Source: Candidatus Lustribacter sp. (GTDB lineage: Bacteria > Vulcanimicrobiota > Vulcanimicrobiia > Vulcanimicrobiales > Vulcanimicrobiaceae). Taken from it: a stretch of 64,000 nucleotides of DNA. The stretch lies in the NCBI GenBank assembly GCA_965277805.1, contig OZ255842.1, positions 2,816,001 to 2,880,000 of the forward strand. The letters are read 5' to 3'. This document shows positions 6,815-49,661 of the stretch, piece by piece (position 1 is the first letter of the stretch; each line of letters starts with the position of its first letter). Both the position numbers and the translations under genes were made by a program. Below the pieces are notes generated by a model that was given only the letters and a program-made list of their open reading frames with translations, did no database searches and was not told where the DNA came from.

Positions 6815-7179
6815 GAGCGCTCGAGGTCCGGGCGCAACACGCGCGCGCCGTCGAGATAGACATGGACGATTTCGTCTTGCCGCTTCTCGGTGTTGATGTG
6901 CAGCAGCACGCGAATCACGCGCGGCAACCCGCCCGGCACCGCGATCTCGGTGAAGTTCAACAGCGGCACGCGCGTCCAGCCCATGCGCCGCGCGGCTGCC
7001 GCCGGGAATTGCGAGACGAGATCGGGCGTGAGCGTGAAGAGCGCTGAGGCCACGTCGTCGGAATCGATCCCGTTCTCGGTCACGATTTCGCGCAGCAGCC
7101 GTTCGGTCGCGCTCAGCAGCAACTCCGCATCGTCGCGTTCGACGGTGATTGCACCGCGCACGCCGCGCACCGCGCTCAT
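6811..7179 (-). CDS. aroH: Chorismate mutase, AroH type
   Basis: VRGVRGAITV, FT.TPDL..FPA..AR, HVYL.GA..LRPDL. Confidence 0.93.
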   Translation of the reverse strand: MSAVRGVRGAITVERDDAELLLSATERLLREIVTENGIDSDDVASALFTLTPDLVSQFPAAAARRMGWTRVPLLNFTEIAVPGGLPRVIRVLLHINTEKRQDEIVHVYLDGARVLRPDLERS

Positions 7180-7922
7180 GATTCTGCTCCCTCTTCGGCC
7201 TTCGCGACGTCGGCAATCACGCGCAGGGCGGAGACCTCACGTTTCGTCGCTTCACGGATCTCGCCCGGTGCGAGCGTGCCGAGGCCGATCGGGCCGAAAT
7301 GTAAACGCGTCAAACCGATCACGGGATGACCGAGTTCCTCGAACATGCGCCGCACTTGCCGGTTGCGCCCTTCGTGGATCGTGACGTCGACGCTCGACGC
7401 GTCGCGACGCGCGGCGACGACGCGCAAGCGCGCCGGTTGCGCCGGCCCGTCATCGAGCTTCATGCCGCGCTGCATCTCCGCAACTTGTTCCGTGCTCAAG
7501 CGCCCGCGCAATGTCGCGCGATAGGTTTTCTCGACGCCGAAGCGCGGGTGCGTGAGGACGTGCGCGAGCGTGCCGTCGTCGGTGAGCAGCAGCACGCCGG
7601 CGGTGTCGTAATCGAGCCGGCCGACGGGAACGACGCGCCGCTCCCAGCCGTTGCGCTTCAACACGTCGGCGATCGTACGCCGGCCTTCGGGATCGCGCAT
7701 CGTGGTGACGACGCCGAGTGGTTTGTTCATGACGATGTACGCCGGTTCGAGCGCGGGCGCGACGATCCGCCCGCCGAACTCGACGACGTCTTTGTCTTCG
7801 ACCGAGGTGCCGAGCTCCCGGACCACGCGTCCGTTCACCCGCACCAGACCCGCGACGATCAACTCTTCCGAGCGCCGCCGCGACGCGACCCCGCTCGCCG
7901 CGAGGTAACGCTGAAGTCTCAT
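7176..7922 (-). CDS. rluB: rRNA pseudouridine synthase (RluB/RsuA family, S4 domain)
   Basis: MRLQRYLA.SGVASRR, VGRLDYDT, IHEGRNRQVRRMF. Confidence 0.9.
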   Translation of the reverse strand: MRLQRYLAASGVASRRRSEELIVAGLVRVNGRVVRELGTSVEDKDVVEFGGRIVAPALEPAYIVMNKPLGVVTTMRDPEGRRTIADVLKRNGWERRVVPVGRLDYDTAGVLLLTDDGTLAHVLTHPRFGVEKTYRATLRGRLSTEQVAEMQRGMKLDDGPAQPARLRVVAARRDASSVDVTIHEGRNRQVRRMFEELGHPVIGLTRLHFGPIGLGTLAPGEIREATKREVSALRVIADVAKAEEGAES

Positions 7923-7924
7923 GG

Positions 7925-9262
7925 CTAGCCGGCGATGAGCGCGGCGACGTCCAGCGACGAGCGCGTCGCAAACGACGTTCGCTTCTCGCGTACTCCGTTG
8001 AGCTCGGATTCGGTCAGCAGCAATTCGTCGTCGCGCGTTCCGGAGAGACGCAGATCGATCGGCGGTTCGACGCGCGCACCGGCAAGTTCGCGCGAGAGCG
8101 CGATCTCGCAGTTCGCGATCGCCGTCGCTTCTTCGGCGATGACGGCGTCGAACGTCGACGGACCATCGACCGCGACCGTCGCAACGATCGTGAGCGAACC
8201 GCCCTCTTCGCACGCGCGCGCCGAACCGAAGAACCGCTTCGGCTTCGCCGCGACGGTGAAGTCGTTGATCGGGCGGCCTTGGGCCGGTCCCGTGCCGAAC
8301 GCGCGCGCCAGACGCGTGAGCGAATCGAGCAAGATCACGACGTCGGAGCCGAGTTCGACCAGCCGCTTCGCGCGTTCCATGACGAGTTCGGCAGTCGCGA
8401 CGTGATGGTCGGGATGTTCGTCGAAGGTGGTCGCGACGATCTCGCAGTCGATGCGCCGCTGCAGCGTCGCCGCATCTTCGGGCCGTCCGTCGATCGAGAG
8501 CACGATCAAGTGCGCGTCCGGCGCGTTGGCCAGAATTCCGAGCGCGAGCGTGACCAGCGTCGAGGTGGCGTCGACCCGCGGCGGCACGGTGACGAGCGCG
8601 CGCTGGCCTTTGCCGAGCGGCGCGTAGAGATCGAGTGCGCGCGTGGCCGGATCGCCCTTGACGGTGAGCTTCCAGCGCGACGCCGGCACCATCGCGTTGA
8701 GATCTTCAAACGAGCGGCGCGTGCGGATCGATTCGGGGTCGTAGCCGTTGACCGTCTCGACCTTGACGATGCCGTAGTACTTCTCGTTGTCTTTGGGGCG
8801 GCGGACTTGGCCCGCCACCAGGTCGCCGCGGCGCAATTCGAATCGCCGGATCTGCGACTGGCTGATGTATATGTCGTCGGCGCCGAGCAGGTAGCCCTCG
8901 CGCCGCAAGAACCCGTAGCCCTCGGGCAAGATGTCGAGTACGCCGTTCGCGTTCTCGACGCCGGAGCGCTGCGCTTGGCTCTCGAGGATCTCCGCGACCA
9001 GTTCGTCCTTCTTGATCTTGACCGGGGTCGCGATGTCGAACGTCTTGGCCAGCTCGTTGAGTTCGGCTTTGCTCATCTCGCCGAGCTGCTCGGCGGAGAG
9101 CTGCGGCGGCCCGACCGGCTGGGGGAATTCGGGTTGGGCGAAGACGTCGGCTTGCGACGGCGCGCCGTTTTCGTTGCGGTTGCGGTGGCGGCGCGAACGT
9201 CGGCGGCGCTGGCCACCACCTTCGGGGCGGCCATTTTGCGGGGGTCGATTATCGTATTGCAG
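7925..9262 (-). CDS. rho: Transcription termination factor Rho homolog with degenerate ATPase domain; probable CTG start
   Basis: Rho_N helix and RNA-binding domain (GVLDILPEGYGFLR..DDIYISQSQIRRF) well conserved; Walker A reads PPRVDAT; frame stays open to CTG at 9262 after a GAGAGAG purine tract. Confidence 0.85.
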   Translation of the reverse strand: MQYDNRPPQNGRPEGGGQRRRRSRRHRNRNENGAPSQADVFAQPEFPQPVGPPQLSAEQLGEMSKAELNELAKTFDIATPVKIKKDELVAEILESQAQRSGVENANGVLDILPEGYGFLRREGYLLGADDIYISQSQIRRFELRRGDLVAGQVRRPKDNEKYYGIVKVETVNGYDPESIRTRRSFEDLNAMVPASRWKLTVKGDPATRALDLYAPLGKGQRALVTVPPRVDATSTLVTLALGILANAPDAHLIVLSIDGRPEDAATLQRRIDCEIVATTFDEHPDHHVATAELVMERAKRLVELGSDVVILLDSLTRLARAFGTGPAQGRPINDFTVAAKPKRFFGSARACEEGGSLTIVATVAVDGPSTFDAVIAEEATAIANCEIALSRELAGARVEPPIDLRLSGTRDDELLLTESELNGVREKRTSFATRSSLDVAALIAG

Positions 9263-9398
9263 CGGAGTCGCTCTCTCGCGGAAGGGTGGGCCCGCATGCG
9301 TGGGGATCGACCGGTGAGGCTACCGGGATCCATCACGACGCGAAACGCCGTTAGGAACATGCCAACGTGGACGGGGTCTTACGCCCGGCAACGCAAGG

Positions 9399-9428
9399 AC
9401 TATAGCACACCGCAATTCACGGCGACAA
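9399..9428 (-). promoter_or_regulatory. Putative sigma70 promoter of the rho homolog
   Basis: TTGTCG-N18-TATAGT with extended -10 TG on the minus strand. Confidence 0.55.
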
Positions 9429-10070
9429 GGACCGCCGGCCGCTGACCGCCCGGCTTCCGCGCGCGTAAAAGCGGTGCGGACGCTCGGCCGCCTTCGTTAT
9501 ACCGATCCGTACGCTGGTCCCGATCGCCGGCGCGGCGCCGTCGTCGGCTATCACGACGCGGTCACCGGCATCGAGGTCGAGCCCGTCGAGCGCGGGCCCG
9601 ATGCCGAAGGCCCGGCAGACGTTGCCAGGCCCGCGCGCGAGTTCGTCATCGCGCAGCCCGTCGCGCCCGCGCTGACTGCGCATCCGGTCGAGACCGGTCA
9701 GCGGCTCGATCGCCCGGATCAACACCGCGGCACCGATCCCGGGCGCTTCGGTGCTGACGTTGACGCAATACGACGTACCATAGATAAGGTACACGTAGAG
9801 ATGCGCGTGCGGTTCGAACATCGCGCGGTTGCGCTTGGTCTCACCGCGATAGGCGTGCGAGGCGGGGTCGTCGATCCCGTACGCCTCGGTCTCGACGATG
9901 CGGCCGGACAATACCGTGCCGTCGTCGAGCCGGCGAATCAGCAGTTTGCCGATGAGGAAGCGCGCGAGTTCCAGCGTTTCCGCCGGAAGGTCGGCGCGCC
10001 GGAGACGTCTATGCGGCGGTGCGAAGCTGGAGCTCGGCGCGGGCGCGCCCTTCGAGATCGGCGATTTCAC
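9417..10070 (-). CDS. mpg: DNA-3-methyladenine glycosylase (MPG/AAG family)
   Basis: GRIVETEAY, D.ASHAY, YVYLIYG, AVLIRAIEP, GPGN.C, RIGI motifs; start uncertain. Confidence 0.92.
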   Translation of the reverse strand: MKSPISKGAPAPSSSFAPPHRRLRRADLPAETLELARFLIGKLLIRRLDDGTVLSGRIVETEAYGIDDPASHAYRGETKRNRAMFEPHAHLYVYLIYGTSYCVNVSTEAPGIGAAVLIRAIEPLTGLDRMRSQRGRDGLRDDELARGPGNVCRAFGIGPALDGLDLDAGDRVVIADDGAAPAIGTSVRIGITKAAERPHRFYARGSRAVSGRRSLSP

Positions 10071-19327: not shown

Positions 19328-20640
19328 TGGGGGATCGCCGGTTGCGGCGCGACGCTGATCGAGACGCCGGGCCGATCGAGGTATTTGGCGGCCGTCGCCG
19401 CGACGAACTCAGGCGTGAGCCCGTTCGCCGCGCTCAGGTAAGCGCCGGAAATTCCGCCTTCGCCGGGCGCGTAGCTCGCATTGCCTTCCACAGCGTACCA
19501 GCCGTAGGTGTCGGCCAGTTCGGCCGGGGTCTCGCCGTCGCTGAGGATGTGGTAGATGAATTGATGGCGCGCCGCTTCGAACGCCGCGCTGCTCAGCGGC
19601 CGGCGGATCGCCTGCAGCGCCGCATCGACCGCGGTGCGCGCAGCGGCTTGGTCGCCGCCGCTGGCCGTCATCAAAAACACGCCGGGATCGTGATAGGTCA
19701 CGAACGTTCCGACGACGCTCGAACCCGAGCTGCGAACGGCCTTTTGCACGACACCGGTCTCCGGATAAAACAGGTAGTCGGCGATGAAATCGAACGCCGT
19801 CGCCTCGCGTTCGTTGCTGATCGGCGGCCCGGCCCAGCCGAGTCCAAAACCCGGCTCGACCCCGCGGGCCGAAACCGGACCGCTGATGGGGGCCAGTGTT
19901 TCCGGAGCGGGCTTCTCGGCTCCGGCCGCCGCGTCTTCACGTCCCGGCAACGCTGAAGCGAGCACCGACGTGTCGACCGCACCGGTGACGACGAGGACCG
20001 CGTTCGCGGGCCGGAACGCGCGCTCGGCATAGGAACGCACCGCATCGATCGTGAGCGTAGAAAACGAACCGCTCGAACCATAGGGCGGAATCTTCGCCGG
20101 ACCGGCCGCGAAGAGTGCCGCGTAGATGGCATCGGTGATGGCCGCGCCGCGATCGTAGGCGCGCACCGTGCCGTCTTGGATCACGCTGCGGCGCGCCGCG
20201 ACGAGGCCGGGCTCGCTCATGACGGGTGAAAAATACGAGCGCGTCATTGCGCGCACCGCGTCGGCCGCGCGATCGGCCGGCACCACCACCGAAATCGCGA
20301 TGCTCTCCGGGTACGTGCTGATCCTGAGCCGTCCGCCGGCTTGGTGCACGAAGGCCGAGAGCGACGTGCCGGTGACCGGCTGCGAGGCGGCGACCGCCGA
20401 GGCCGCGAGACGGCCGAGACCCGGCACCGCATCGCCCGCAAAGCCGGCGGCCGGTGCACGGTACCAGAGCGCGACGGCCGCGACCGAGGCGCCGCCTTCG
20501 GGCCGCACCAGATACGTGCCGCCGCCGGCCAGCGAGCCCGTGAGCGCCGCCGGTGCCGCTGGATCCGGGCCCGCGCCGGCCGTAGAAACAACGAGGGCCG
20601 CGCCAACCAGCGCGGCCCTCACGACGGCGCCGATGCGCAC
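19324..20640 (-). CDS. Exported M16 (insulinase) family homolog lacking HXXEH
   Basis: Signal peptide; VA.ALWYRA..PGLGRLAASAV; LTIDAVRSY...FRPANAVLVVTG; LTPE.V.ATAAKYL. Confidence 0.8.
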   Translation of the reverse strand: MRIGAVVRAALVGAALVVSTAGAGPDPAAPAALTGSLAGGGTYLVRPEGGASVAAVALWYRAPAAGFAGDAVPGLGRLAASAVAASQPVTGTSLSAFVHQAGGRLRISTYPESIAISVVVPADRAADAVRAMTRSYFSPVMSEPGLVAARRSVIQDGTVRAYDRGAAITDAIYAALFAAGPAKIPPYGSSGSFSTLTIDAVRSYAERAFRPANAVLVVTGAVDTSVLASALPGREDAAAGAEKPAPETLAPISGPVSARGVEPGFGLGWAGPPISNEREATAFDFIADYLFYPETGVVQKAVRSSGSSVVGTFVTYHDPGVFLMTASGGDQAAARTAVDAALQAIRRPLSSAAFEAARHQFIYHILSDGETPAELADTYGWYAVEGNASYAPGEGGISGAYLSAANGLTPEFVAATAAKYLDRPGVSISVAPQPAIPQ

Positions 20641-49620: not shown

Positions 49621-49661
49621 AGAGCCGCCGGATCTTCCGGCGGCTCTTTTTTTTCTTTTTT
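49621..49661 (+). terminator. Intrinsic terminator after amt
   Basis: 12-bp stem AGAGCCGCCGGA/TCCGGCGGCTCT followed by a long T run. Confidence 0.9.

Follow-up and report, generated by a model that had tools for sequence, protein, structure and literature searches.

What does a Rho factor do once its motor is gone and the gene is kept? Rho is the textbook ring-shaped RNA motor, and a locus in the genome of Candidatus Lustribacter sp. raises this question. The DNA that we analysed is a 64,000-nt stretch of contig OZ255842.1 (assembly GCA_965277805.1, positions 2,816,001 to 2,880,000 of the forward strand; hereafter the window), and its minus strand carries a Rho-family gene that appears to be motor-dead. 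We find it probable that this gene encodes a maintained pseudo-ATPase acting as an ATP-independent RNA-binding oligomer, a function that we infer. A first-pass annotation, made from the letters of the window, had already proposed a maintained pseudo-ATPase, and that proposal is supported by degenerate motifs shared among relatives, by fixed replacement residues and by ratios of nonsynonymous to synonymous substitution rates (dN/dS) far below 1.

By descent the protein belongs to the Rho family, with the domain order Rho_N, RNA-binding OB fold and RecA-type domain. The looser Rho model of NCBIfam, NF006886, matches it at 407.5 bits (cut-off 315), while TIGR00767, the model for functional Rho equivalogs, gives 411.5 bits, below its cut-off of 509.45, with the match ending at model position 391 of 415. 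AlphaFold2 produced a model with a mean predicted local distance difference test score of 83.6 and a predicted template modelling (TM) score of 0.78, in which the RecA-type former ATPase domain is modelled with high confidence and only residues 1-45 with low confidence. In a fold search against the PDB all of the 50 best matches listed were Rho, with TM scores of 0.65-0.76 normalised to the query and 0.78-0.89 normalised to the target. Several early observations held up here: the gene spans 7925-9262, its start at 9262 being a CTG backed by comparative data (see below); the frame is uninterrupted from an upstream stop at 9322-9320 to the TAG at 7927-7925; and the Rho_N and RNA-binding domains are well conserved, as seen both in the Pfam matches and in the invariant motif residues. 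The N-terminal extension, described at first as rich in Arg, Asn and Gln, is indeed present (R10, P9, Q7, G6 and N5 in residues 1-54), but canonical relatives carry this extension too, so it is not peculiar to the dead form.

The state of the motor was read from a residue-by-residue alignment to the solved Rho of E. coli and T. maritima, with residues numbered by the E. coli scheme. In Walker A, PPKAGKT has become PPRVDAT (K181R, A182V, G183D, K184A), which leaves no GxxxxGK[ST] signature, and DERPEE has become DGRPED, with the catalytic glutamate replaced (E211G) and R212 retained. The R-loop EEFKGTGN reads EEATAIAN and the Q-loop is rewritten, so that the secondary RNA-binding site that these two loops form in an ATP-dependent translocase is lost. 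The Walker B Asp, the Arg valve and the Arg finger are all present, as are the motifs LLDSLTRLARA, KPKRFFG.AR, GGSLT and SGTR. The C-terminal TKTN..F motif, found in canonical proteins and in the type-B proteins introduced below, does not occur in proteins of the window's kind, whose tail corresponds to window positions 7925-8032. Both the losses first noted (Walker A, DERPEE, Q-loop and R-loop) and the survivals (LDSLTRLARA, PKRFFG.AR, GGSLT and SGTR) are thus seen, substitution by substitution, in this alignment. Walker A and B, the catalytic Glu, the Arg valve, the Arg finger and the Q- and R-loops make up the Rho motor and its secondary RNA site, according to the available portions of PMC4499133 and PMC11347177, and the alignment shows that the ATP-site and secondary-RNA-site residues of Rho are lost from the window protein.

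The degenerate state is shared by relatives. In a first sample of 41 genomes searched with TIGR00767, all eight genomes of the genus scored 363-414 bits, below the cut-off, and 25 genomes of other genera scored above it. Across the whole family (348 genomes) 291 had a match, 220 had one over the cut-off and 57 had none; among high-quality family genomes a rho match was found in 163 of 186. None of the 42 rows from the sister genus passed the family cut-off. (The family and sample tallies include G015, G036, G194, G227, G247, G251, G258, G260, G276, G337, G352, G366, G424 and G428; G366 is one of 32 sister-genus genomes counted. Loci L024 (G036) and L067 (G337) served as canonical comparators only, for the outgroup, canonical dN/dS, start codons, leader and trees, and nothing said of the type-A genus depends on them.) The same degenerate motifs are carried by dozens of metagenomic proteins, with identities of 72-91%; the source names on related proteins are Candidatus Velthaea, Candidatus Elarobacter and Vulcanimicrobium alpinum (Eremiobacterota), and public records label such proteins 'transcription termination factor Rho'. 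Intact GKT and DERPEE motifs in close relatives, which the first-pass annotation had named as the sign of recent decay or an assembly error, were not found: the same-genus relatives are without them, all eight genomes being degenerate, and only more distant genera carry them. An assembly slip can be set aside because the same motifs occur in many other genomes; a short-read contig of run X1 also matches 7800-8768 with 0 differences, a run that probably comes from the source sample and is not independent. The same origin is probable for the public runs that hold a high share of the sampled words; others with a small share bear peat or soil labels, and we base no statement on habitat on these.

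Fixed positions were sought in a joint set made up of 120 database proteins and the open frames from 58 loci. Sorted by four catalytic positions, its rows fell into 66+3 of type A (the window's kind), 67+1 of type B, 40 canonical and one other. The rows are not all independent, since 175 rows represent 164 distinct sequences over the aligned core, and the type-A tallies use 67 rows, one truncated protein and one frameshifted locus having been set aside. At the G183 position type A has Asp in 65 of 67 rows and Glu in the other two, making it acidic throughout, and Lys is never found at the K184 position (0/67). Val stands at A182 in 66/67 and Arg at K181 in 54/67; the E211 position is Gly in 66 and Cys in one; Ile is found at T328 in 61/67 and Ala at G329 in 66/67; and no row (0/67) has the R-loop Lys, in whose place stand Thr, Ala or other residues. 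The Arg valve and the Walker B Asp are kept in 67/67, and the Arg finger in 65/67. The residues of the primary-binding-site motifs, which in Rho take C-rich RNA, are invariant in all 175 rows.

Type-A rho is under purifying selection throughout, because dN/dS lies far below 1 in every domain, with bootstrap bounds. In the order whole gene, N-terminal tail, Rho_N plus RNA-binding domains, and former ATPase domain, the values were 0.145, 0.058, 0.039 and 0.176 for the type-A genus (6 genomes, 15 pairs) and 0.236, 0.238, 0.116 and 0.291 for type B (13 of 23 type-B loci, 78 pairs). The corresponding values for canonical sets, the last for a working ATPase domain, were 0.036, 0.136, 0.053 and 0.015 (g19), 0.101, 0.307, 0.178 and 0.030 (f1 genera), and 0.095, 0.291, 0.075 and 0.049 (f3). 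Constraint is now tightest in the RNA-binding half and no longer in the motor, the inverse of what is seen in canonical relatives. Codon bootstrapping of four type-A pairs put dN/dS of the former ATPase domain at 0.126-0.242, and no upper 95% bound exceeded 0.354; dS within the genus is 0.3-0.9, and the type-A C-terminal tail has a dN/dS of 0.40. The ortholog alignment and dN/dS estimates suggested at the outset as a check thus show both conserved degenerate motifs and purifying selection.

The gene has no canonical partner in its genome. The window genome is a single contig of 5,533,281 bases, rated 95% complete and 5.9% contaminated, and a TIGR00767 search of it returned this locus at 411.6 bits and four further matches of at most 63.6 bits, which cover only the C-terminal ATPase part of the model and which we read as probable other superfamily ATPases. 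No second rho-like gene was found in this one-contig genome, nor any over the cut-off in the seven other genomes of the genus, which answers the call for a search for a second, canonical rho. The order mpg-rho-rluB is found in most loci examined, in three families and whether rho is canonical or dead; a flank is absent only where the locus is truncated or a match scored below threshold. The window gene is the positional orthologue of canonical rho, because the two share this gene order, the promoter, the leader hairpin, the Shine-Dalgarno-like box and the CTG start, and because the trees of Rho and of its flanks agree. On the minus strand rho, rluB and the genes for chorismate mutase and prephenate dehydrogenase run head to tail, probably as a single operon.

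In the Rho tree, built from 164 sequences and 393 columns with the class's other family as root, types A and B came out as sisters with a support of 1.0, nested inside canonical grades. The flanking genes, two in number, gave a tree of 55 loci and 436 columns that likewise makes the two genera sisters (0.997); next out comes a canonical genus paired with the partly degenerate g47, in which GKT is kept and the Q- and R-loops and SGTR are altered, and then a genus without rho. Since K181R and the loss of GKT are common to types A and B, the simplest reading is that the two go back to a single inactivation in a shared ancestor. Another dead form, the third, is g49; it (L072 and L073; G162 and G231) falls in a separate clade and has no P-loop Lys, an E211A replacement, a deleted Q-loop and no N-terminal extension; its Rho is 42-43% identical to the window protein and its flanks 52-64%, rho evolving faster than the flanks. 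In four of the five rho-less genomes examined mpg is directly followed by rluB, with gaps of 0, 0, 98 and 17 nt, and in the fifth about 670 nt lie between them, with no recognisable rho remnant. Within the family, then, the motor has died at least twice independently and rho has been deleted at least three times, all at one locus. Clean deletions from the conserved locus were seen at L078, L079, L080 and L082 (G020, G186, G011 and G229). Two loci are of note in their own right: L071 (G156) has a partly degenerate Rho with GKT and the catalytic Glu kept and with altered Q- and R-loops and SGTR box, its N-terminal extension lying in another frame (perhaps a frameshift or a different start), and in L031 (G022), a one-contig genome, a canonical rho lies in two frames that part just before Walker A, either a pseudogene or an assembly indel.

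Where the protein begins was itself a question, as there is no in-frame ATG, GTG or TTG between the upstream stop and the ATG at 9076. That ATG was rejected as the start: the Rho_N match begins upstream of it, and the 62 codons upstream are conserved as protein in all relatives and under purifying selection, their differences among the eight genomes of the genus falling on Rho-frame third positions. Comparison of 41 loci, namely those with the anchor motif within 120 codons of the upstream stop, showed CTG at the start position in 40 and ATC in one. Seventeen of the 41 have no canonical start from the upstream stop to that codon, and for 11 of these 17 the following 60 codons offer none either. 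Across the loci compared (L006-L068) the CTG is preceded, at a distance of 7-8 nt, by a conserved purine box. These comparisons support the reading of the CTG at 9262-9260 as the likely rho start. We also considered an out-of-frame ATG at about 9233 as an upstream open reading frame or the true start (53 codons, window 9073-9233, its TGA overlapping the ATG at 9076 as ATGA), and rejected it because the variation among the eight genomes sits at its second positions, which are the Rho-frame third positions. The CTG start, with ATC in the one locus, is common to canonical and dead rho in the family and the neighbouring family. Database N-termini are truncated or variably extended, giving protein lengths of 383-497 aa; gene callers miss the CTG.

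Upstream of the gene, the promoter first judged plausible was recovered at 9428..9399 by a consensus scan that found 1 site on the minus strand against 0.3 +/- 0.5 in shuffles, and it is conserved in the genus. The leader that would follow is non-coding, because length differences in its spacer are not multiples of three. It holds a conserved hairpin with the loop core GCCUC, which 25 of 26 loci share unchanged, and with compensatory changes at three of five predicted pairs; the C-rich loop AGCCUC is almost invariant across the 26 loci. The hairpin could be autoregulatory, for example as a target for the C-specific RNA site of Rho or as a partner of the Shine-Dalgarno-like box. An Rfam scan of 7800-9600 gave no match near any gathering score. 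A soil metatranscriptome contig matches 9154-9314 with three differences; DNA carry-over is possible and a contig does not demonstrate a transcript, so we do not count it as expression. All features are collected in Table 1.

Table 1. Features of the rho locus, in window coordinates; residue numbers refer to the 445-codon reading frame.
Feature	Position	Strand	Remarks
mpg (methylpurine-DNA glycosylase), upstream neighbour	9420..10070	-	conserved 5' flank of rho
Sigma-70-type promoter, TTGTCG-18-TATAGT, extended TG	9399..9428	-	overlaps 3' end of mpg; both hexamers identical in 8 genomes of the genus
5' leader, about 130 nt	9263..9392	-	from the transcription start predicted from the promoter; conserved blocks and variable spacer
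Leader hairpin CCGGUAGCCUCACCGG	9311..9326 (inner; whole element 9304-9331)	-	canonical and dead lineages alike
Shine-Dalgarno-like GAGAGAG	9271..9277	-	8 nt upstream of CTG; GAGGGAG in sister genus
Rho-family coding sequence, probably motor-dead	7925..9262	-	445 codons; CTG start 9262-9260, TAG stop 7927-7925
N-terminal extension, residues 1-54, rich in Arg, Pro, Gln, Gly and Asn	9101..9262	-	dN/dS 0.058; residues 1-45 predicted disordered
Rho_N domain, residues 59-101	8960..9088	-	Pfam PF07498, 31 bits (cut-off 24.9)
Rho RNA-binding (OB) domain, residues 106-177	8732..8947	-	Pfam PF07497 (Rho_RNA_bind), 111.7 bits (cut-off 27)
Primary-binding-site motifs in OB domain	8900-8923, 8822-8878, 8759-8803	-	
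RecA-type former ATPase domain, residues 207-407	8042..8644	-	Pfam PF00006 (ATP-synt_ab), 57 bits (cut-off 29.5)
Degenerate Walker A, VPPRVDATS	8561..8587	-	Lys and GK[ST] signature gone; acidic residue at G183 position
SIDGRPED box	8474..8497	-	catalytic Glu to Gly; Arg valve kept
Walker B region ILLDSLTRLARA	8300..8335	-	Asp and Arg kept
Rewritten Q-loop	8246..8296	-	3 residues shorter
Rewritten R-loop, EEATAIAN	8111..8134	-	Lys gone
LSGTRDD box	8027..8047	-	Arg finger kept
rluB-like S4-domain pseudouridine synthase, downstream neighbour	7179..7922	-	ATG 2 nt past rho stop

How might such a protein work? With no P-loop Lys, no catalytic Glu and none of the Q- and R-loop residues that pull RNA, the RecA-type motor would be permanently off, and the most constrained remainder is the OB-fold crown for C-rich single-stranded RNA together with the Arg-rich disordered tail, the former ATPase domain persisting as a folded scaffold. 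The protein would bind naked, untranslated C-rich single-stranded RNA like Rho, without translocating, and because it presumably binds RNA and cannot translocate, it would act by binding as an oligomeric scaffold, be it through occupancy or condensation, as a chaperone of RNA, or by touching RNA polymerase. The invariant acidic residue of the P-loop may stand in for phosphate, pairing with the retained arginines (the R212 and R366 equivalents), and such a pairing would fix the subunit interface in a nucleotide-free state. The idea that the protein replaces Hfq was dropped, Hfq being present in the genome at 84.5 bits.

A number of points weigh against this explanation. The phosphate-mimic role of the P-loop Asp may hold, but we infer it purely, and residual nucleotide contact is conceivable, equivalents of R181, R212, D265 and R366 being retained. 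Our dN/dS values come from NG86, a rough pairwise method, and alignment of the N-terminal tail is poor among the canonical sets; the former ATPase domain of type A has a dN/dS 4-12 times that of canonical relatives, which fits slow decay too. In one genome of the genus (L038, G002) the frame of the type-A rho shifts near codon 384-397, which could mean a pseudogene or an assembly indel. Complete deletion of rho is seen in related genera, and g49 is sister to two rho-less genera, so the function kept by the window gene may be of little weight or a stage on the path to loss. The whole case is also built from sequence, selection estimates and a predicted structure.

Still, the maintained pseudo-ATPase remains the explanation that we consider probable, and a bolder form of it can be stated, with low confidence: the lineage's only Rho might be a nucleotide-free, ring-shaped RNA-binding factor that ends or silences the transcription of untranslated RNA without translocation, the acidic P-loop locking the ring. 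Two genera or more, with dozens of species, make up this lineage, among them the carrier of the protein that NCBI names as Rho of the cultured V. alpinum. If true, this would be natural proof that Rho can act on RNA polymerase without a motor.

Among the rival explanations, the one that survives best, though unlikely, is an ATP-free allosteric terminator. It would engage the nascent transcript as well as RNA polymerase (with NusG or NusA) and shut down the elongation complex. The RNA-recognition crown is intact, the regulatory context of rho is retained, and the genome encodes NusG (215.5 bits), although its presence favours none of the readings. There is also only a weak excess of canonical intrinsic terminators, 64 against about 50 expected in 60 kb, so that another way of ending transcripts may be needed; the scans of the 60 kb found 20, 19 and 25 against 17.1, 17.2 and 15.5 expected, too crude a measure to tell how transcripts end. 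(Two terminator-like hairpins are convincing, at 49621-49657 on the plus strand, with a 12-bp stem and a T-run behind it, and at 20591-20622 on the minus strand, with a 14-bp stem.) However, the ring-closing secondary RNA site is destroyed in the window protein, and for M. tuberculosis Rho the one published claim of motor-uncoupled termination was not upheld, a competent catalytic site being required (PMC4499133, in the part available).

That the gene is functionless and slowly decaying towards loss is a very unlikely alternative. It would account for the deletion of rho in several related genera, the raised dN/dS of the former ATPase domain and of the C-terminal tail, and the frameshift in G002, but it sits poorly with the intact frames of 67 type-A and 68 type-B rows despite deep divergence, the dS of 0.3-0.9 being that of the genus alone, with a dN/dS of 0.04-0.06 in the N-terminal half, and with fixed replacement residues and a conserved promoter and leader. 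We think it highly improbable that the protein is a working ATP-dependent translocase with an unconventional nucleotide site, for instance one built on the Arg at the K181 position and the retained arginines. The frequency of that Arg, the preservation of Arg valve, Walker B Asp and Arg finger, and the confidently predicted RecA fold speak for it; against it, GK[ST] is gone, an acidic side chain stands where the P-loop Gly must leave room for phosphate, the catalytic Glu is Gly in nearly all rows, both RNA-translocation loops are rewritten, constraint on the former ATPase domain is relaxed 4-12-fold, and the sister clade has further lost the Walker B Asp (68/68) and the Arg finger (68/68). Finally, a dominant-negative or regulatory subunit mixing into canonical Rho hexamers, another role proposed at first, is excluded for practical purposes, as the one-contig genome has no second rho (unless in the roughly 5% that is missing) and neither the eight genus genomes nor the 42 sister-genus rows show a match over the family cut-off.

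With the maintained pseudo-ATPase as the preferred explanation, the locus adds to what is described for Rho. A 2024 survey of 2730 genomes found the ATPase domain highly conserved among functional Rho factors and sorts species as having or lacking functional Rho (PMC11347177, in the part available); the word 'Eremiobacter' does not occur in its text, supplements not covered. Our literature searches found no published report of a pseudo-ATPase Rho or of an Eremiobacterota termination factor, and the accessible text of a 2025 review (PMC12360218) has no wording on an ATP-independent, ATPase-deficient, degenerate, atypical or lacking Rho, nor the word Walker. The window gene would represent a third state beside having and lacking functional Rho, with a sole orthologue that is motor-dead yet conserved, and at this one conserved locus the family shows canonical rho, dead rho with two or more independent origins, and clean deletions next to each other. 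This makes a natural series for asking what the RNA-binding half of Rho does alone, allows termination uncoupled from translocation to be tested, a question raised and rejected for M. tuberculosis Rho, and bears on the way transcripts end in high-GC bacteria where canonical intrinsic terminators are scarce. A test is feasible, as one organism with the sister form goes by the NCBI name Vulcanimicrobium alpinum, which a corrigendum, in its abstract, calls the first cultivated representative of its phylum, naming its family Baltobacteraceae. Annotation is affected as well, both through the dead proteins labelled 'transcription termination factor Rho' and through the CTG start that gene callers miss.

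Comparison with known systems sets the window protein apart from each of its relatives. Short-form Rho paralogues (NF041509) are a poor match, at 317.6 bits against a cut-off of 628; the short second copies keep their catalytic residues and stand beside a full Rho, per the available part of PMC11347177, whereas the window gene is a sole copy. M. tuberculosis Rho (7OQH) is likewise atypical, with an Arg-rich N-terminal addition and a motor-independent termination once proposed, but it keeps all catalytic motifs and needs a competent ATP site (PMC4499133, same portion), while the window protein is without those motifs. With canonical Rho (TIGR00767; E. coli 1PV4, 3ICE and 5JJI; T. maritima 3L0O) the window protein shares the three-domain architecture, the fold, about 42% identity, the primary RNA-binding motifs and, with the orthologues of related genera, the chromosomal locus; it differs in being without the P-loop Lys, the catalytic Glu, the Q-loop, the R-loop Lys and TKTN..F, and in falling below the equivalog cut-off. 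The type-B Rho of the neighbouring genus (which includes the V. alpinum-named P0092 and Candidatus Elarobacter proteins) is a sister clade with the same locus, leader and CTG start, which shares K181R (68/68), the loss of GKT and rewritten Q- and R-loops with the window protein. Its set of dead positions is nevertheless a different one: type B keeps the catalytic Glu in 67/68 rows and the C-terminal motif, and has Ser or Glu for the Walker B Asp (68/68), Trp, Phe or another residue for the Arg finger (68/68), Asn at the T365 position (68/68), and Asp or Glu at the K184 position in 61/68.

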